Source of the DNA: an uncultured Chlorobiaceae bacterium
GTDB taxonomy: Bacteria > Bacteroidota > Chlorobiia > Chlorobiales > Chlorobiaceae
Reading direction: 5' to 3'
DNA length: 64,000 nt
Assembly: GCA_903895195.1 (NCBI GenBank)
Contig: CAITSZ010000034.1
Location: 47,104-111,103, forward strand
A program made the position numbers and the translations under genes. Below the pieces are notes generated by a model. That model was not told where the DNA came from. It saw only the letters and a program-made list of their open reading frames with translations, and ran no database searches. Within the stretch, counting starts at the first letter, position 1; each line of letters opens with the position of its first letter. Shown in pieces: positions 49,617 to 57,563 of the stretch.

Positions 49617-49913
49617 TTATGGCTCAAACCGCAAATAAATGCGCTCCTTTTCCTTTTGCTTGTCAATGACTACTTTATTGGCGTATTGCCGAATAAGTGC
49701 TACCGAAAGACTGGTAATGGCAACGGCAAGAAAGCCCGCAGTCACAATCCCTTCTGCCTCATGCTGTGTTCCATGAACCTCAGCAACCAGCATAAGGGGA
49801 TAAACGATAAAGACAAGAGCAAGCACAGCATGCTGAAACGCCAGAAAAAACAGGGTAGAAAAGGGTGGCAGATCATCGACGCCATAAATGATATTGGAGG
49901 GCTTCTGATTCAT
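49617..49913 (-). pseudogene. Truncated N-terminal fragment of an NCS2 (xanthine/uracil-type) permease
   Basis: IIYGVDDLPPFSTLFFLAFQHAVLALVFIVYPLML matches the NCS2 N-terminus (YG.DD.PP....LL..QH.LAM). The ORF is only 98 aa versus more than 400 expected, and its tail is unrelated. Confidence 0.5.
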
Positions 49914-49927
49914 GGGAATAATGCTTA

Positions 49928-50359
49928 TTAGAGCCTGCCCGTTGACGATGAACGATTGACAACCAATCTCAGGACGTTTTGATCATTTCGCCTCCGATAA
50001 CTGACGCTGTCGGAAAATTTGCGGATAAAATAGCCACCAAGCCCCCCGATTTCACGGTCAGCAATATCAAGAGAGGTATCAGGGTCGGGAAGCGATAATA
50101 CATTAAAAGGGCTTCCTGAATCCAAAATTTCAACGACAAGCGCATCGTCAACCCTGTCACACAAAACTTCAATCCTCCCCTTCCGGTCAGGAGAGGAATA
50201 GTTGCAGACATTGACGAAAGCCTCTTCAACGGCGATCAGCAGTCCGAACTTTTTTTTCGAATCAAGTCCGAATTGATCAGCACATCCCTCAATGAATTCA
50301 GTGATTTCCGGCAGCTTCTCAACATTGGCTGCCACTATTTTATTGCATGTGTCCGTCAT
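49928..50359 (-). CDS. RsbW/SpoIIAB-type anti-sigma regulatory factor (GHKL Ser/Thr kinase)
   Basis: 143 aa. LLIAVEEAFVNVCNY (N-box), ILDSGSPFN (G1) and GGLGGYFIRKFSD (G2). Confidence 0.85.
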   Translation of the reverse strand: MTDTCNKIVAANVEKLPEITEFIEGCADQFGLDSKKKFGLLIAVEEAFVNVCNYSSPDRKGRIEVLCDRVDDALVVEILDSGSPFNVLSLPDPDTSLDIADREIGGLGGYFIRKFSDSVSYRRRNDQNVLRLVVNRSSSTGRL

Positions 50360-50698
50360 TTAACCAAGCGAAGCACTCAATGCGCTTGCCACCGAGTCGT
50401 GCGTTGGAAAAAGGGTGCAGAAACCAGAAATCTCGAATACATCTTTGACCACTCCCGTGATATTTGCAAGAAGGAGTTTTCCGTTTACAGCTTTGACCCT
50501 TTTAGCTGTAGCAAGGAGAACACGCAGCCCGGCACTGCTGATATAGTCGACCTGTTCAAAGTCAACGATAAAGCTTATCTCTCCTTCAGCAATCAGCTCG
50601 CTGAACTTCTTTTCATATTCCGGTGCAGTTAGGGCATCCATCTTTCCGGTTATTGTCACTATAAGGGCTGTTGTTTCTTTACTGGTCTGAATAGGCAT
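50360..50698 (-). CDS. STAS-domain anti-sigma-factor antagonist (RsbV/SpoIIAA-like)
   Basis: 112 aa. IVDFEQVDYISSAGLRVLL carries the conserved phosphorylatable Ser loop. It ends directly adjacent to the RsbW-like start. Confidence 0.85.
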   Translation of the reverse strand: MPIQTSKETTALIVTITGKMDALTAPEYEKKFSELIAEGEISFIVDFEQVDYISSAGLRVLLATAKRVKAVNGKLLLANITGVVKDVFEISGFCTLFPTHDSVASALSASLG

Positions 50699-50752: not shown

Positions 50753-51844
50753 CTACTGTTTTTTCAAAATCAGAGTTACCCTGTTTTTATTATTCAGTCG
50801 CTGGTAATCGATGCTCTCCGTTACGCTCTGGATAAGGGTCAATCCCAACTCGTCAGATAATAGATTTTTGTCAAGCACATTCATTGCCTCACCGGTGCTT
50901 TCAAAGACAACTTCCAGACTCTCCTTTTTTTCTGAATAGGCAAGATTGATATCAAGGAGTGCCTTAGAGAGAAAAGGATTGTATATCTGCAGCATCTCTT
51001 CAACAATCAGGAGAAGATTGTATCTCTGCTTCACAGCCAGAATCTGTTTATCGCAAAAGGTCTCTATTTCAGCATTCATTGCATACAAATCATAGTCAGG
51101 AGAAGCGATATGATAGGTAAAACTTCTTACCCTGTTTATGAATGTCTTGGTCTTTTCTTTTTGGGGATGAACAAAAATCTGCTCAGGAGTACCTTCTTCG
51201 TAGATAATACCGTCATCCATATAGAGCACCCGATTTGAAACGTCCCTGGCAAAATCCATTTCATGGGTGACAATTGCCATGGTCATGCCGGCTTTAGCCA
51301 ATCGGCGGATAACCGACAAAACTTCGCTTACCATGGTGGGATCAAGCGCCGAAGTCGGCTCGTCAAAAAGAATAATTTTAGGATCCATAGCCATGCAGCG
51401 GGCGATGGCAACGCGTTGTTTCTGACCGCCGGAAAGTTCGTCAGGGTAACTTTCGGCCTTTTCAGCAAGACCTACAAGTTTAAGAAGGTCAACGGCTTTA
51501 CTCCCTGCATCCTCCTTACTCATCCCTAAAAGCTTAATCGGCCCGAGAGTCAGATTATCCATCACAGAGAGATGAGAAAAAAGATTAAACGATTGAAAAA
51601 CCATGTTCATCTTCTGCCGGACTTTTGGTACGTCGGCTTTTGGATCCAGGATGTCAACTCCATCAATCCGGATTGAACCGCCACTTGGTCGATCAAGCAG
51701 GTTGATACAGCGCAAAAAAGTGCTTTTACCAGTTCCGGAAGGTCCAATAATTGAAATAACTTCTCCTGCCTTTATTTCAACAGTGATATCTTTCAGCACT
51801 TCCAGATTCCCGAAACTCTTGGAAAGATGATCTATCTTTATCAT
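50753..51844 (-). CDS. Polar-amino-acid ABC transporter ATPase with ~115-aa C-terminal RsbW-like extension
   Basis: Walker [10 protein letters not shown], signature LSGGQKQR, Walker [12 protein letters not shown] and H-loop VTHEM within residues 1-245. Residues ~250-363 align by eye with the adjacent RsbW-like protein (see findings). Confidence 0.85.
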
Positions 51845-53580
51845 GCGTTTGTTATCGGTTTTCTGTTGAGTTTAGGGTTAGCCAACCGTTCAGCATACTC
51901 CATGAACAACATGAGAAACCATGAAATCAGGTAATACAAAACGGCAACCATGATAAGGGGAAAAAAGGCATCAAAGGTACGACTGCGAATGATGTCACTT
52001 GCCTTCGTCAAATCCTGCACGGCAATGTATCCTACTATGGAGGTCATTTTAACCAGCGAAATAAATTCGCCCTTATAGACTGGCAGTATGCGCTGAACGG
52101 TTTGCGGGAGAACAATAAAAATAAAGGTGTTGACCCTGGTAAAGCCCATGGCAATTCCAGCTTCAGACTGCCCTTTATCTATACTCTCTATGCCTGAACG
52201 GTATATTTCCGCAACATACGCCGCAAAATTCATCCCGAATGCAATAACTGAAACAATAACAGGATCAATATTTACCGAAGCAAAGACGACATAAAATATC
52301 AGCATTAAAAACACCAGTACAGGTGTTCCCCGTAAAATAGAGATATAGGTTTTCGCCAGCACATTGAGTATTGCGTTTTTAGACATTCTCATAAAACAGA
52401 CAATCGCACCAAGGACGGTGCCGAAAAAAGTTGAGAGCACTGAAATAATCACAGTTGTTTTCAGCCCTTCCAGAATAAGCAGATAACGATTTTCCTGAAC
52501 GATATTACTCTGCATGCTGTTAGCTATACCGGCAAAAAATGAGGGGATCTCTCCCGTCTTTTTACTCACCCTCACCTCTTTATTGAGTGCTATATTTTTT
52601 TTCAGCACAAACATATTGGCCAGAACAATATCAGAAGGGGTTTTGTAGTGCAGGATTGTTGCTTTTGGATATGTTTTTATAGCATAAGCGTCATGAACAG
52701 AACCAAGCGAAACCCCAATCCGCCTGTCTTTCAGATCGGCAGCAGATGAAATTTCAGTTGCTTCTTTTTTTCCGGCAACTCCGGGTTTATTGACGAGCAT
52801 GACCTGTGCATTGAGAAAGTAAGACTGTGTGAAGTTCACCTTTTTTTTGCGCTCTTCTGTTGCAGTCATCCCTGATATAATAAGATCCACCTTGCCTGAT
52901 TGCAATGCAGGTATAAGCGCCATAAATTTCATGTTATGAAATTCAATCGGCCGATGGAGTCTGGCCCCGATGATGCGTGCCAGCTCACCATCAAATCCAA
53001 TCACTCTGCCATTTTTGTCAACAAAATTAATCGGTTCACGCGTAGCGGTTACCCCTATTTTTAAAATCTGACCGCGCGAAGGAAGTGCAATCTGCTTTTC
53101 TTCATAGGGAGTCATCTCCTTTTTGAACCAGCGCCTGTTCATATCCGCCAGCGTGCCATTGGCTTTCAATTCACCTACAATCCTGTCGACTGCGGCAAAG
53201 AGCTGTTCATCCTCTTTTTTAACCGCAATAGACGTATCCTCGTCTTTAAGCCTCTCGTTGAGGCATACAAGTTCCGGATTTTTCTTTGATACCTGAAGAG
53301 CTGTAACGGATGTTGTAACAATAGCATCAAGCTGACCTGACTTTATTGCCGCAACTGCGTCCATGATGTCATCAAAACTTTTGATCTGCGCATCCGGAAA
53401 CTTCGCATTGGCAATAGTCTCTCCGGTTGTACCGGTCATCACACCGATTTTTGCAAATTTGGCATCAGCAAAACTCGTTATGAACAACTCATTTTTACGG
53501 CACCCGGCAAAAGCAATAACAAACAAAAAAAATGAAAGCAGCGGGACTACCCTCTTTTTCATCTTCCACTCTTTATTCAT
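51841..53580 (-). CDS. Fusion of periplasmic amino-acid-binding domains with an ABC permease (His/Glu/Gln/Arg/opine family)
   Basis: Lipoprotein-like signal FAGC. SBP_bac_3-type blocks ([38 protein letters not shown]). The C-terminal permease has the EAA-like loop [14 protein letters not shown]. Confidence 0.8.
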
Positions 53581-54358
53581 TGACCACTGCTGCTATACCG
53601 CCAATGTAGTAAGGGTCAGAAAAGAGAACTTTTTTGGCTCGCTCATCGGTAATAGTGATACATGCAGCAATCATATCAACCTTGCCGGAAATCAATGCCG
53701 GAATCATTGCGCCGAACTCCATATTGACAACTTCAAGTTTCATATCAAGCTTTTTAGCAACATAACGGGCAAGTTCGATATCAAATCCCACAATACCCCC
53801 TGAGCCATCAACAAAAGAAAACGGTTCTGTTACACTTGATGTACCAAGCCTCAAAACACCTTTGTTGCCGGTTAATGGAATCGCCGGCATAGGAGCTGGA
53901 TTGCCTGTTTTGGGAAACCAGCGCTGCATCATGGCATCATAACCGCCATTTTTTTTCAGCTCGCCCACAACAAGATCAATATTTCTTTTCAGCTCACGAT
54001 TATCTGGCTGAACTGCAAAGCCGTAATTATCCGTTGTGATCATCTCTGGAAGCACCAGAAGTCCACTGTTTTTTGCCACTATGTTTTTCAGAATCGGTTC
54101 ATCATATGCTGCCGCATCAGCCTTGCCGGTTTTAACCGCCAACACTGCGTCCATGACACTGTTGAAGTACTTGAATTTGGCATTGGGTAATTTTGAGAGT
54201 ACCAGCTTGTCAGCAACGGTTCCGGTCGGTACTGCAATCTCCATGCCGTCAAGTTGTTGAAGCTTTGTAATTTTTTCTCTTTTGCTGTTGCAGCCTGACA
54301 GCATGAAAAATGAAGAAAAAATTACTACCAGTAGAATCCTGAAATTATTAGCGATCAT
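53573..54358 (-). CDS. Periplasmic polar-amino-acid-binding protein (SBP_bac_3), apparently circularly permuted
   Basis: Signal plus lipobox-like LSGC. The canonical N-terminal block (PFSFVD..G.IVGFDIELARYVAKKL...IPALISGKVDMIAA.ITIT.ERAK) lies in the C-terminal half of this protein. Confidence 0.75.
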   Translation of the reverse strand: MIANNFRILLVVIFSSFFMLSGCNSKREKITKLQQLDGMEIAVPTGTVADKLVLSKLPNAKFKYFNSVMDAVLAVKTGKADAAAYDEPILKNIVAKNSGLLVLPEMITTDNYGFAVQPDNRELKRNIDLVVGELKKNGGYDAMMQRWFPKTGNPAPMPAIPLTGNKGVLRLGTSSVTEPFSFVDGSGGIVGFDIELARYVAKKLDMKLEVVNMEFGAMIPALISGKVDMIAACITITDERAKKVLFSDPYYIGGIAAVVNE

Positions 54359-54440: not shown

Positions 54441-56381
54441 TCATACATCGGTAACAATGCCGCGATATTTTATGGCAACCATGGTAACATCATCGGACTG
54501 AGGTGCCCCGTTGGCATGACGGGTCACTTCTGCCCGGATGGTGTGAATCATGTCGGTAAGGTCATCTTTTGAGCCATCATTCAACGCCTGCAAAAGCCTC
54601 GACTCTCCGTAGAGCTCTTCTTCAGGATTTTTCGCCTCAGTCACCCCGTCAGTATAAAGAAAAAGGATATCCCCCTTCTGGAGGGTCAAGTGCTCGGTTT
54701 CATAAACAGAATCCGGCATAGGCCCAAGCACAAATCCATGTTTCGGTGCAAGATACCGTATTCCCAGGGAGTCAATAATCAGGGGCGGATTATGGCCCGC
54801 ATTGGCAAAACGAACCTCTCCACTTCCGGTATCAAGAATTGCGCAAAAAACAGTCGCAAACATGCAACTCTCATTATCTGCCGCAAGAATGTTATTGACA
54901 TAGGAAAGGATCATAGCGGGTTCTCCAAGGCGCTGTCCTTCTGACTTCAAGAGGGTCTTGGCAACCATCATGTAAAGGGCAGCGGGGACCCCCTTATCAG
55001 CTACATCTGCAATAAGAAAACAGAGATTGTTGTCGTCAATAAAAAAGAAATCGTAAAAGTCGCCACCGACCTCTTTAGCCGGGTCCATAGAGGCAAAAAT
55101 ATCGAACTCGGGACGATCCGGAAATGCAGGAAACAACCGCGGCAAAAGACTGGCTTGAATATCAGTTGCCACCTTGAGCTCGCTCTGTATACGTTCTTTT
55201 GCAGCGGTGGTCTCCGTGAGATTTTTAATGTACTCCTTAAGCGACGTGACCATCAACTGAAACGATGAAGTCAGCACACCAACTTCATCATTCGACCTAA
55301 CCACTGGAAGTTCAATATCAAAGTTGCCAGAAGCCATAACCTCTGTAGCCTCAGCAAGTGATCGGAGAGGTTTGGTAATGGAGCTTGCAATTGAGTATAC
55401 CGCCAATGTCAAAAGCAGAATTCCTGCAAGTCCCATGCCGGCCATGGTTAAGCTCAGCTTTCTGACGTTTTCGACCAGCTCCTCTTCAGGGAATACCACA
55501 GCAAGAGTCCATCCAGTTGAACGGATCGGAGCAAAATACATCCAGCTTTTAACCCCGACAAGACTTGTATAGTGCACAAACCCGGACTCCCCCTGGACCA
55601 TCTTCTTGCCAAGGTCCCGCAAGGAAGTATCATGCCTCGACTCTGCAATACTAAAAAAAGTCTCATTCATGATCGCATCCTTCAAAGGATGAGCAAGCAC
55701 CATCCCGTTACGGGAGAGAAGCGCTGCATAACCGGTTTTAAGAATTTTAACAGAAGAGATAAGCTCTGTCAGCGAGACAAGAGGAATATCCGATGTCACA
55801 ATTCCCTTGAGAATCCTCGTTCCACCTCGGTCCAGGTAGAAAGGAACCGAACAGGTAGCCATCGCAATATTAGCGCCTCCATCATCATAATAGGGTTCAC
55901 TCCATTCAAGTTTACCCAACTCCCGCGGAATCTGATACCAGTCCCAATAAACATAAGGCACATACTGATAAGAGTCTTCCAGGCGTATGAATGTGATTTT
56001 TCCTTTTTCCCTGTAAAAATAAGGAGCATACAGGCGATTAGCTTTTCTGAAGGCATAGGGCTCAAATGCAATTCCAGCCCCATATATCCTGGGATTATCC
56101 TCTAAAGTCGTCCTGATCCGGGCAAGAAGTTCATTTTCAGTATACCTGCCCGTTTCCATCGATCGGGCCACTCCTTCAGTAACCTTAGTAACCGACACAA
56201 GCTCACTCTCTACCCTGTTCACCAAAGACATTGCAAGATTACGGGCATTGTTTTCCAGCTCTTGTTCGAGAATAAGGCGCGACTCGTAATAATTATAACC
56301 AAGCGTGAAAGCAAAAATAAGCACACTGCAAAACGTGATCACAAGAATCAGCTTAAAGACAATGCTTTTATGGCCGGGCAT
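54441..56381 (-). CDS. Membrane sensor phosphatase: double-Cache-like periplasmic domain, HAMP, PP2C/SpoIIE (RsbU-type) domain
   Basis: TM1, then a ~280-aa extracytoplasmic region and TM2. HAMP (ITKPLRSLAEATEVMASGNFD). PP2C blocks GGDFYDFF, ADVADKGVPAAL, NAGHNPP, LYTDGVTEA and DDVTMVAI. Confidence 0.85.
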   Translation of the reverse strand: MPGHKSIVFKLILVITFCSVLIFAFTLGYNYYESRLILEQELENNARNLAMSLVNRVESELVSVTKVTEGVARSMETGRYTENELLARIRTTLEDNPRIYGAGIAFEPYAFRKANRLYAPYFYREKGKITFIRLEDSYQYVPYVYWDWYQIPRELGKLEWSEPYYDDGGANIAMATCSVPFYLDRGGTRILKGIVTSDIPLVSLTELISSVKILKTGYAALLSRNGMVLAHPLKDAIMNETFFSIAESRHDTSLRDLGKKMVQGESGFVHYTSLVGVKSWMYFAPIRSTGWTLAVVFPEEELVENVRKLSLTMAGMGLAGILLLTLAVYSIASSITKPLRSLAEATEVMASGNFDIELPVVRSNDEVGVLTSSFQLMVTSLKEYIKNLTETTAAKERIQSELKVATDIQASLLPRLFPAFPDRPEFDIFASMDPAKEVGGDFYDFFFIDDNNLCFLIADVADKGVPAALYMMVAKTLLKSEGQRLGEPAMILSYVNNILAADNESCMFATVFCAILDTGSGEVRFANAGHNPPLIIDSLGIRYLAPKHGFVLGPMPDSVYETEHLTLQKGDILFLYTDGVTEAKNPEEELYGESRLLQALNDGSKDDLTDMIHTIRAEVTRHANGAPQSDDVTMVAIKYRGIVTDV

Positions 56382-57384
56382 TAGACCTCCTCGAAAACGC
56401 TGTATAATCCGGATAACTGTGAATCAGGCCTTCACGTTGCATAGTATTTCCAACCGCTTCATAATCCATGCTGTTAAGCGTCCCCATACCTCCCTTACCC
56501 TTGCCGGGTTTCACAAGGTCCTGCATTCGGTCAAGCATCCATTTCTGGTGGATCCGATTCGCAGGAACCTGAGCCAGATGCATATACTTGATAACGATCT
56601 CAAGCGCCTCGTCAGGATGAGCAAAAGCATATTGCCACCCTTCAAGCGAAGCACTGACAAAGGCATCTGCCAGAGCCGGATCCCTTGTAATGGTTTTTTC
56701 CAGAGTGTAAAGACCATCCTCGGGAAAATTCATACCCTGGTCACTGAGAAACACAGCATTCAGCTGCTCCGCATCCACACCGGAATTAAGGATAACGTGA
56801 TACTCGTTATACCACATGGCCGAGGTCACATCAATTCCCCCCCGCAAAAAAAGGTTCACCGTGTGCGAAAGGGGCACTTCCCTTACTGCAATGCCATGTT
56901 TTAAAAATAACGTCCTGGGAGGAATGGAAAGGTCTCCCCCCCACAGACCGACCTTTTTGCCTTTCATATCTTCCAAGCTTCTGATTCCGCTGGATTTTTT
57001 GGAAATCAGCATCATAGAAGACCTCTGAATAATTTGCGACACATTGACAAGCTTTGTGCCGGCATTCCGATGCTGAAGAGCTGTAGTGAGCCATAGAACA
57101 GCAAAATCAGCCTGACCACTCTGTAAAGATTCTGCAGCAGAATGACCTGCACCACCATTAAGAATTGTCAAATCAATCCCATGCCTGGCATAAATCCCTT
57201 TATCAAGAGCCACATAATACCCTGCAAACTGGGCTTGTGGGCTCCAAAGGGGAATGAGTGTGGCTTTTTTGAGGGCAATATGAGCTATTGCAGATTGCGT
57301 ATAAACAGAGCAGAAGATGAACATCTGAAGAATTCCCAGGATACGCACGAATAACTGCATTTGATTGGAACTCTTGTACCTCAT
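56368..57384 (-). CDS. NMT1/THI5-like (NitT/TauT-type) periplasmic substrate-binding protein
   Basis: Signal-like MRYKSSNQMQLFVRILGILQMFIFCSV. PLWSPQAQFAGYYVALDKGIY and GKKVGLWGGD are typical of NMT1-like SBPs. The start is uncertain (57384, 57360 or 57447). Confidence 0.7.
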   Translation of the reverse strand: MRYKSSNQMQLFVRILGILQMFIFCSVYTQSAIAHIALKKATLIPLWSPQAQFAGYYVALDKGIYARHGIDLTILNGGAGHSAAESLQSGQADFAVLWLTTALQHRNAGTKLVNVSQIIQRSSMMLISKKSSGIRSLEDMKGKKVGLWGGDLSIPPRTLFLKHGIAVREVPLSHTVNLFLRGGIDVTSAMWYNEYHVILNSGVDAEQLNAVFLSDQGMNFPEDGLYTLEKTITRDPALADAFVSASLEGWQYAFAHPDEALEIVIKYMHLAQVPANRIHQKWMLDRMQDLVKPGKGKGGMGTLNSMDYEAVGNTMQREGLIHSYPDYTAFSRRSNARP

Positions 57385-57563
57385 TGTAATCCTGAGCATC
57401 TCCGTTCCCCTTTTCATGAATAGATCTGGCAGAGGGAATCCGTGCATGAACCAATAGTTACGGCGTCAGAGGATATTGTGCTAAAAACAACTACAGCCCT
57501 CCTGCTCTTTTTTTAAGCAACTTTCCAATGTAACTATATTTCAGATGATCTGTTATCCCCAAT

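Follow-up and report, generated by a model that had tools for sequence, protein, structure and literature searches.

A kinase-dead GHKL domain fused to an amino-acid-type ABC importer ATPase in Chlorobiaceae and other bacteria: a candidate receptor for a phospho-switchable STAS protein

The window analyzed here is a stretch of 64,000 nucleotides from an uncultured Chlorobiaceae bacterium (assembly GCA_903895195.1, contig CAITSZ010000034.1), and its subject is an ATP-binding cassette (ABC) ATPase encoded by a 363-residue open reading frame (ORF; 50753–51844, minus strand) in a tightly packed run of minus-strand genes. Residues ~240–363 of this ATPase are a GHKL (Bergerat) domain of the RsbW/SpoIIAB type. 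The domain shares fold and ancestry with these anti-sigma kinases, has lost their catalytic motifs, is strongly conserved, and is genetically linked to a partner-switch set that includes a STAS protein and an intact kinase. From this we infer that the STAS protein may bind the ATPase, that the face by which the ancestral kinases hold their STAS partners may be the binding site, and that the transporter may be the output of the switch. We put the chance that the unphosphorylated STAS protein docks on the pseudokinase domain of the importer ATPase, gating transport, at about even; slightly less confidence goes to the fuller statement, namely that a widespread, probably horizontally transferred cassette lets a phospho-switchable STAS protein gate an amino-acid ABC importer directly through a built-in, kinase-dead GHKL receptor. 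The arrangement suggests that uptake might be controlled through protein phosphorylation and not through gene expression. The parts of the ATPase are as follows (all minus strand).

51128–51844, minus strand: nucleotide-binding domain (NBD) of the ABC ATPase, residues 1–239 (ABC_tran, E 2.8e-35)
50753–51127, minus strand: C-terminal kinase-dead GHKL (RsbW/SpoIIAB-like) domain, residues 240–363 plus the stop codon (profiles and model)
51074–51100, minus strand: PDYDLYAMN, residues 249–257, at the beta1-alpha1 junction of the extension; near-invariant in the family
50996–51001, minus strand: E282-E283, N-box remnant of the extension (alignments)
50840–50854, minus strand: D331-E-L-G-L335, G2-box remnant at the start of alpha3 of the extension (corresponds to GGLGG in the neighbor kinase)

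Residues 1–239 match the PDB chains of ArtP, GlnQ, and HisP with E-values from 1e-90 to 1e-71, and the Walker A, Q-loop, signature, Walker B, and H-loop motifs can all be read in the translation; the NBD looks catalytically intact. No PDB chain matched the ATPase by sequence past about residue 264, and no NCBIfam model spans the extension. Positions 50756–51097 (minus strand) encode residues 250–363, and the translated C-terminus reads LILKKQ.

Pairwise comparison of the extension with the 143-residue kinase encoded two genes downstream (hereafter the neighbor kinase) was not significant (BLASTP E = 11), and the case for homology was therefore built on profiles and structure. Twenty-five homologs of the extension were collected, of which 19 were aligned; later alignments, drawn from 80 related loci, comprised 78 extensions and 32 neighbor kinases. 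The Pfam family HATPase_c_2 (PF13581) was matched by all 19 aligned extensions at E ≤ 1, with a best E-value of 3.7e-8; it was the only family matched by more than one of them, and some homologs bear a precomputed PF13581 annotation. In the window protein the match runs over residues 253–359 and covers profile positions 8–126 of 127 (7–126 for the domain alone), with an E-value of 0.004 for the whole protein (17.6 bits) and 2.8e-4 for the domain alone (21.3 bits), both scores lying below the gathering cut-off of 27.4 bits. Comparison of families gave higher significance: hhalign joined the 78 extensions to the 32 neighbor kinases with 95.9% probability (E 5.1e-9, 94 columns), the neighbor-kinase profile matched 15 ABC-extension ORFs end to end (best E 1.3e-6), and a whole-ORF profile of the ABC ATPase matched three neighbor kinases through extension positions 253–362. 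A profile of the extension searched against PDB sequences found no kinase, only noise at E > 0.2. On the profile evidence, homology of the extension to the HATPase_c_2 family is established.

The fold tells the same story. An AlphaFold2 model of the extension (predicted local distance difference test, pLDDT, 90.8; predicted template-modeling score, pTM, 0.84) has the secondary-structure order beta1, alpha1, alpha2, beta2, beta3, alpha3, beta4, beta5. When the model was searched against the PDB with Foldseek, the 22 best matches were all anti-sigma kinases or their kin (Mycobacterium tuberculosis UsfX, Bacillus subtilis RsbW, SpoIIAB, Rv1364c, and SiaB), with E-values from 8e-6, query-normalized TM-scores of 0.52–0.73, and about 130 of 134 columns aligned; the catalytic (CA) domains of classical histidine kinases ranked after them. 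The extension thus shares with RsbW, SpoIIAB, and UsfX the fold, the order of secondary-structure elements, a profile match over the whole domain, and the position of the catalytic-base Glu. It differs from these stand-alone kinases in being fused to the C-terminus of an ABC ATPase, in having lost the catalytic motifs, and in having no visible sigma partner.

The original prediction, made from the sequence alone, had described a complete NBD followed by an extension that aligns block for block with the neighboring RsbW-like protein. The first part is borne out by the ArtP/GlnQ/HisP matches. For the second, a joint MAFFT alignment of extension and neighbor kinase (29 of 123 positions identical) reproduces the second and third of the predicted blocks exactly, and family profiles and the model agree; the structure search, too, returned SpoIIAB/RsbW-type kinases at the top, as anticipated. 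The same prediction had called the extension a degenerate copy of the neighboring kinase, and here only part of it holds. The extension is homologous to RsbW-type GHKL kinases; specific copying of the neighbor gene is not separable from general HATPase_c_2 ancestry, and an origin by local duplication is not established, because the general Pfam profile fits the extensions about as well as the neighbor-family profile does (3.7e-8 vs 1.3e-6, from searches of different size). A C-terminal 'Y-x-R ... N-x-L-x-L' pattern common to the extension and the neighbor kinases hints at a common subfamily.

Known regulatory domains of ABC proteins were considered as the identity of the extension and rejected: TOBE, NIL/MetN C2, ACT, and CBS gave no Pfam match at E ≤ 1 for the whole protein. 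What Pfam returned was GHKL similarity, in the form of HATPase_c_2, with the TOBE, NIL, and ACT families absent. One of the results that the original prediction had named as fatal to it, placement in such a family with no likeness to GHKL proteins, did not occur.

The extension retains the outline of the kinase fold without its nucleotide-binding residues. At the position of the N-box Asn, a ligand of Mg-ATP that is present in 31 of 31 neighbor kinases, none of the 78 extensions has Asn; depending on the alignment, the position holds I, L, V, or M, or an adjacent conserved Q. In the G1 box, the Asp that binds adenine is replaced (by S in 57 of the 78, N in 6, G in 4, and T in 4), the Gly that follows it being kept in all 78, and D-[ED]-L-G stands in place of the G2 motif GGLG. 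The extensions also have a shorter ATP lid, which has lost 11 residues and the conserved Arg. The corresponding kinase residues (E46, N50, D80, R102, and GGLG) are kept in 30–31 of the 32 neighbor kinases. Because the N-box Asn, the G1 Asp, and the G2 glycines are lost and the lid is shortened, the extension is almost certainly unable to bind ATP or to phosphorylate a substrate, as judged from these motifs. The degradation of the GHKL motifs that had been noticed in the window protein is therefore correct and holds across the family, and 'pseudokinase-type domain' is a fair description, since every nucleotide-binding motif is gone. One feature of the active site persists: an acidic pair, E282-E283, is found in 74 of the 78 extensions, where E283 lines up with E49, the catalytic-base Glu of B. 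subtilis RsbW.

A search for this C-terminal domain, made in one genome per species, found it in at least 167 species, and a profile search of 1.84 billion cluster representatives returned 701 clusters at 50% identity (E ≤ 0.001). Its hosts include Chlorobiaceae, Geobacterales, Methylococcaceae, Nitrosomonas, Candidatus Nitrotoga, Burkholderiaceae, Acidobacteriota, Gemmatimonadota, and Bacteroidota; among those in culture are Methylobacter, Nitrosomonas communis, Trichlorobacter thiogenes, and Candidatus Nitrotoga fabula. The homologs carry the source annotation 'polar amino acid transport system ATP-binding protein'. In the 80 loci every intact gene joins the extension to the ABC ATPase (the ORF is split in three loci), and in some cases a single chain of 880–1150 residues makes up the entire transporter. 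The extension of the window is 88% identical to that of another Chlorobiaceae metagenome-assembled genome (MAG). Eight complete cassettes of other phyla were compared with the window: the NBD is the most similar part, at 81.5% identity, followed by the permease (75%), the phosphatase (73%), the NMT1-like protein (65%), the extension (62%), the STAS protein (54%), and the kinase (35%). By this comparison the extension is under selection and not a decaying relic, because it is better conserved across phyla than the STAS protein or the live kinase. Since the whole cassette is similar across phyla, its horizontal spread is suggested as well.

These figures bear on the simplest objection, that the resemblance is due to chance or composition, or that the extension is what remains of a decaying fusion. 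The BLASTP value, the Pfam score of the window protein, and the empty-handed profile search of PDB sequences would all fit such a reading; the agreement of four independent profile and structure methods, the breadth of occurrence (167 species-representative genomes and 701 clusters), and a conservation exceeding that of the STAS protein and the kinase make it highly improbable.

The genes around the ATPase supply the remaining parts of the proposed switch. In the window they are the following (all minus strand, in order of transcription from the NMT1-like gene, the ATPase lying between the permease fusion and the STAS gene).

56368–57447, minus strand: NMT1/THI5-like periplasmic binding protein, 359 residues (Pfam NMT1, E 7.6e-41)
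54441–56381, minus strand: membrane sensor phosphatase dCache-HAMP-PP2C (SpoIIE family), 646 residues (SpoIIE 1.7e-51, MCP-like_PDC_1 2e-25, dCache_1 6.7e-19, HAMP 5.9e-13)
53573–54358, minus strand: family-3 solute-binding lipoprotein, 261 residues (Pfam SBP_bac_3, E 1e-34)
51841–53580, minus strand: solute-binding domain fused to an ABC permease, 579 residues (SBP_bac_3 2.8e-35 and BPD_transp_1 9.7e-19)
50360–50698, minus strand: STAS-domain protein of the anti-sigma-antagonist type, 112 residues (Pfam STAS, E 1e-21)
49928–50359, minus strand: RsbW-like Ser kinase, 143 residues (HATPase_c_2, E 1.8e-25)

Several junctions overlap or abut: 14 nucleotides (nt) for the NMT1-like gene and the phosphatase gene, 8 nt for the lipoprotein and the permease fusion, 4 nt for the permease and the ATPase, and 0 nt for STAS and kinase, where by the coordinates the kinase start directly follows the STAS stop. 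The complete NBD and the SBP_bac_3 and BPD_transp_1 genes upstream place the transporter among the polar-amino-acid ABC importers (GlnQ/HisP/ArtP type). No equivalog cut-off was reached when the transporter proteins were searched against NCBIfam; the 261-residue lipoprotein matched Lys/Arg/Orn-, Gln-, and Arg-binding proteins, all under the equivalog cut-offs.

The STAS protein scores 88 bits against NCBIfam TIGR00377, above the cut-off, and matches PDB chains of SpoIIAA and RsbV with E-values from 7e-11 to 8e-7. Its S55, in the motif DYISSAGLR, aligns with the phospho-acceptors Ser56 of RsbV and Ser58 of SpoIIAA and is invariant in 48 of 48 STAS orthologs. The neighbor kinase, whose nearest PDB chain is B. 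subtilis RsbW, has intact motifs (N-box E45, E46, and N50; G1 D80-S-G82; G2 G105-G-L-G-G109), conserved in 29–31 of about 31 orthologs except at position 82, which is Gly in 18 and Ala in 12. By these motifs, the operon appears to encode a partner-switch set of the RsbU/RsbV/RsbW type together: a PP2C phosphatase, a STAS protein with the acceptor Ser, and a kinase with intact motifs. The dCache-HAMP-PP2C protein, whose best NCBIfam match is SiaA (well under cut-off), is presumed to be the phosphatase of the phosphorylated STAS protein (STAS-P). Of 38 related loci with a PP2C gene, at least 21 have an ortholog of the NMT1-like protein encoded directly ahead of it (E ~1e-130 to 1e-153), and this protein is probably a co-sensor that would deliver a ligand to the phosphatase. 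Within residues ~125–180 of the phosphatase, the dCache sensor reads ...YVYWDWYQ... by eye. A Trp there seems to occupy the place of the Arg that binds the carboxylate in amino-acid-binding dCache domains, in which case the signal might be something other than a free amino acid.

No sigma-factor gene was found in the operon or in the immediate flanks examined (which hold genes for an aldolase, an acetolactate decarboxylase, an endonuclease, and an old yellow enzyme-type reductase), and none recurred in the related loci checked by Pfam; a sigma factor encoded elsewhere in the genome is possible. Directly downstream of the kinase, a 98-residue ORF (49617–49913, minus strand) is hydrophobic and membrane-protein-like, has no Pfam match, and may be a gene fragment.

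The linkage of these genes to the extension is not peculiar to the window. The usual cassette comprises a binding protein, a sensor PP2C phosphatase, a binding-protein/permease, the ATPase-pseudokinase, a STAS protein, and a kinase, without a sigma factor. Among 73 loci with at least 1.5 kb of downstream sequence, STAS was present in 45 and the kinase in 35; among 50 loci with both flanks, STAS was present in 33, PP2C in 33, all three in 23, and none in 13. The STAS start usually lies ~1–90 nt after the ATPase stop (36 loci with STAS called just downstream). Two loci have switch genes of another kind. In a Burkholderiales MAG (L080, 3370–5506), a divergent STAS gene, a HATPase_c_2 gene, and a gene for a cNMP_binding-PP2C protein adjoin the same transporter, and an Acidobacteriota MAG (L036, 3025–4837) has a divergent STAS gene and a gene for a 509-residue HATPase_c_2 protein whose C-terminal 350 residues are uncharacterized. 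Sensor inputs differ between loci around an unchanging ABC-pseudokinase, a pattern that fits a transporter acting as the output.

In the mechanism that we propose, an external ligand would be sensed by the dCache-HAMP-PP2C phosphatase, probably together with the NMT1-like binding protein, and the phosphatase would then remove the phosphate from STAS-P at S55. The unphosphorylated STAS protein would dock on the alpha1/alpha2/alpha3 face of the pseudokinase domain, as RsbV docks on RsbW. Two pseudokinase domains are expected to hang under the NBD dimer, and STAS docking could alter dimer closure, and hence the ATPase and transport rates, in either direction. The separate, intact RsbW-like kinase would rephosphorylate the STAS protein and so reset the switch, and the acidic pair E282/E283 may serve to repel phospho-Ser55.

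Each of these steps is plausible because it has a precedent in MlaB–MlaF, in the RsbW1/RsbW2 pair of M. smegmatis, or in SiaABCD and HenR/All4160. In E. coli the ABC ATPase MlaF is bound by a STAS protein, MlaB, and binding is weaker when the conserved Thr of MlaB is replaced by a phosphomimetic; phospho-regulation of MlaB was raised as an open possibility by its authors (PMC7367683). In both systems a single-domain STAS protein goes with an ABC ATPase as an accessory regulator, here as judged from gene adjacency and comparison. They differ in that MlaB binds the NBD itself, whereas here there is a dedicated GHKL-type domain as putative receptor; in that no kinase or phosphatase is known for MlaB, whereas this operon encodes both; and in the cargo, Mla transporting lipid and the window system being an importer of the polar-amino-acid type. 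The SigF switch of M. smegmatis divides the labor in a way that matches a pseudokinase receptor and a separate kinase: RsbW1 binds STAS as the effector, RsbW2 only phosphorylates, and RsbW3 acts by protein binding (PMC7693655). The effector there is a free anti-sigma factor for SigF, while in the window the presumed binding paralog is covalently joined to a transporter ATPase. Direct action of an unphosphorylated substrate on an enzyme is known from SiaABCD of P. aeruginosa (PMC7647112) and HenR/All4160 of Anabaena (bioRxiv 10.64898/2026.04.08.717354), both of which likewise combine a membrane HAMP-PP2C phosphatase, an RsbW-type kinase, a STAS-like substrate, and a non-sigma output; the outputs are a diguanylate cyclase and a glycosyltransferase, both without a GHKL-like receptor domain.

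A docking site on the extension can be sought in the crystal structure of B. subtilis RsbV-RsbW. RsbW holds RsbV through helices alpha1, alpha2, and alpha3 (PMC7340262); the residues that form hydrogen bonds with RsbV are R23 in alpha1, D42, K44, S48, and E49 in alpha2, and Y118 in alpha3, E49 being bonded to the phospho-acceptor Ser56 (PMC7340262). Among the residues of the extension that correspond to these RsbV contacts are E261, which is conserved (D265 if alpha1 is aligned in the other register), E282, E283, and the residue after D-E-L-G-L.

The loci that lack switch genes allow these positions to be viewed with and without the presumed partner. In 13 Chlorobiaceae loci (L002, L004–L007, L015, L016, L019, L021–L024, and L027), only the binding protein, the permease, and the ATPase-extension are present. 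We compared drift in these loci with that in switch-linked loci, nine linked Chlorobiaceae serving as the matched control. Of the positions with a conservation of 85% or more in the linked loci, twelve drop to 55% or less in the switch-less ones. They fall in segments 250–254 (the beta1-alpha1 junction), 286 (alpha2, beside the Glu pair), and 332–343 (the start of alpha3), with single positions at 242 and 361. PDYDLYAMN has become PRYDPHTMS and DELGLxII has become DxSAESAVW, the D331–L335 region being the most strongly drifted segment, and the frequencies of E282 and E283 fall from 1.00 to 0.77 and 0.69. This drift is the best available evidence on the point, and it suggests that the extension uses the ancestral STAS-binding face.

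Several findings weigh against the docking of the STAS protein on the extension and need to be set beside this evidence. The mapping of contact residues rests on low-identity alignments, in which the register of alpha1 varies by 3–4 residues between methods. The most conserved motif of the extension, PDYDLYAMN, lies at the beta1-alpha1 junction, which corresponds to the RsbW dimer interface rather than to the RsbV site. The drift comparison represents essentially two lineages and about two evolutionary events. The 13 of 50 fully flanked loci without STAS, kinase, or phosphatase within ~8 kb belong mostly to one Chlorobiaceae group, and in L002 and L004–L007 the extension is still conserved, being 77–80% identical to that of the window; therefore either it has some switch-independent role or a STAS protein is encoded elsewhere. 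Co-variation is equivocal too. Of the two parts of the ATPase, the extension (partial Mantel r 0.44, p 0.0005) and not the NBD (r 0.06, p 0.26) diverges in step with STAS, but the permease does so just as closely (r 0.44 with the extension controlled for), and the STAS-extension correlation falls to r 0.23 (p 0.045) once the permease is controlled for. The mirror-tree signal is thus weak and not specific.

The switch-less loci speak for a role of the extension that has nothing to do with STAS. Like the MetN C2 or MalK/ModC domains, it might pair the ATPase subunits or bind a small molecule, the adjacent switch regulating something else. C-terminal dimerizing domains under the NBDs are the usual means of allosteric control of ABC importers (PMC10710835), and the extension resembles the MetN C2/NIL and the TOBE-type MalK/ModC domains in its place directly after the NBD, where two copies under the ATPase dimer would be expected to control closure (PMC10710835); their fold is unrelated, and they bind small molecules or EIIA-Glc. 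The small molecule could be the internal amino acid, acting by trans-inhibition in a remodeled former nucleotide pocket. Conservation of the domain in 13 of the 50 fully flanked loci would be explained, and so would L002, which is flanked by the same cupredoxin/CarboxypepD_reg-type gene as is found near the window operon: it may be the orthologous locus minus the switch genes, which would then have been gained or lost at one locus, the switch coming and going around a working transporter. We nevertheless regard this alternative as unlikely. The STAS gene usually follows the ATPase gene within ~1–90 nt in most loci and in several phyla, and independently acquired switch modules of a different type adjoin the same ATPase. 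The Glu pair, which could not serve to bind a ligand once the other pocket residues are gone, is kept in linked loci and relaxed where the switch is missing, and no known ligand-binding ABC regulatory fold was detected by Pfam.

The position of the PDYDLYAMN motif raises another alternative, in which the transporter is the input of the switch. The pseudokinase domain would sequester STAS, or heterodimerize with the kinase through beta1/alpha1, and thereby report substrate flux to a switch whose target, a sigma factor or an enzyme, lies elsewhere. RsbW-type proteins dimerize via beta1 and alpha1 (PMC7340262), which is where the most invariant motif of the extension sits; a non-kinase RsbW paralog that binds another RsbW exists in RsbW3 of M. 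smegmatis (PMC7693655); and the kinase of the operon has no visible sigma partner. Against this stands the dedicated sensor that the cassette already has (dCache-HAMP-PP2C and a binding protein), which is elsewhere swapped for a cNMP-binding PP2C while the ABC-pseudokinase remains constant. The kinase shows the lowest conservation of all components (35% identity), frequently lies on the other strand, and was not found close to the ATPase in several loci with STAS, and no conserved candidate target gene accompanies the cassette in the related loci. We consider a transporter that informs the switch rather improbable, and continue with STAS docking on the ATPase as the preferred reading.

Partner-switching modules abound in bacteria without a matching sigma factor, and most of them have no known output. 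To our knowledge, few mechanisms of post-translational control of bacterial ABC importers have been described, namely trans-inhibition of MetN and ModC by way of their C-terminal domains, EIIA-Glc acting on MalK, PII on NrtC/CmpC, and MlaB on MlaF. The cassette suggests a variant of two known kinds of control, partner switching with a non-sigma output and C-terminal regulatory domains of ABC importers. Our literature search found neither an ABC_tran plus HATPase_c_2 architecture nor a partner switch acting on an ABC transporter, with the limit that most subscription journals lay outside the search, so that absence is no proof; reviews on STAS-only proteins (PMC8256260) and on transporter regulation (PMC10710835) describe neither. 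If the docking mechanism is true, the cassette would be the first partner switch with a transporter as output and would provide the first description of a GHKL pseudokinase domain within an ABC protein. It would also be a natural and complete version, with kinase and phosphatase, of the STAS phospho-regulation that has only been conjectured for MlaFB, and an instance of a signaling kinase fold recycled as a docking module. For an 'orphan' partner switch it offers a testable output, the transporter ATPase, and a concrete receptor, a domain that keeps the STAS-facing helices of the kinase minus catalysis. The family occurs in cultured organisms, and experiments are thus feasible.

Unusual fusions of the extension were also inspected. 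No 'Rosetta stone' fusion of the extension with STAS was present in ten long matches examined, the long ones being fusions of binding protein, permease, ATPase, and extension. A metagenomic protein of 298 residues (P0030) has a FliG C-terminal domain at residues 18–121 (Pfam E 8.8e-38) followed by an extension match at residues 165–297 (E 4e-43); it is either a genuine odd fusion or a chimera of assembly or gene calling. In a protein of 140 residues from a 590-nt contig (P0016), the first ~25 residues, MEFQSRKEAGATILTISGRLDAVT, resemble the N-terminus of the cassette STAS protein and are joined at 'TPDY' to the extension, which probably reflects a chimeric assembly or else a deletion between two sites of similar sequence, 'APEY' and 'SPDY'.

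The binding-protein genes of the transporter show further irregularities. The two solute-binding ORFs of the window (53573–54358 and 51841–53580, minus strand) have an unusual order of partial binding-protein matches: in both, an N-terminal segment matches the second half of binding-protein profiles (weakly in the 579-residue ORF) and is followed by SBP_bac_3 positions 1–91. The 261-residue ORF stops mid-domain, 8 nt inside the next gene. Fused chains of 770–1270 residues with multiple binding domains occur in related loci. The window ORFs may be a split or rearranged tandem binding-domain gene, as their match order would allow. In Trichlorobacter thiogenes (L044, 3131–12927) and in three further loci (L018, L030, and L054), where no STAS or kinase gene was found nearby, the neighborhood comprises genes for a glycoside hydrolase family 3 (NagZ-like) enzyme, a triple binding-domain-permease, the ATPase-extension, an MR_MLE-family enzyme, a DUF819 protein, and a dCache-HAMP-PP2C protein. 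The enzymes encoded there hint that the substrate of the transporter may be cell-wall-derived amino acids or dipeptides.

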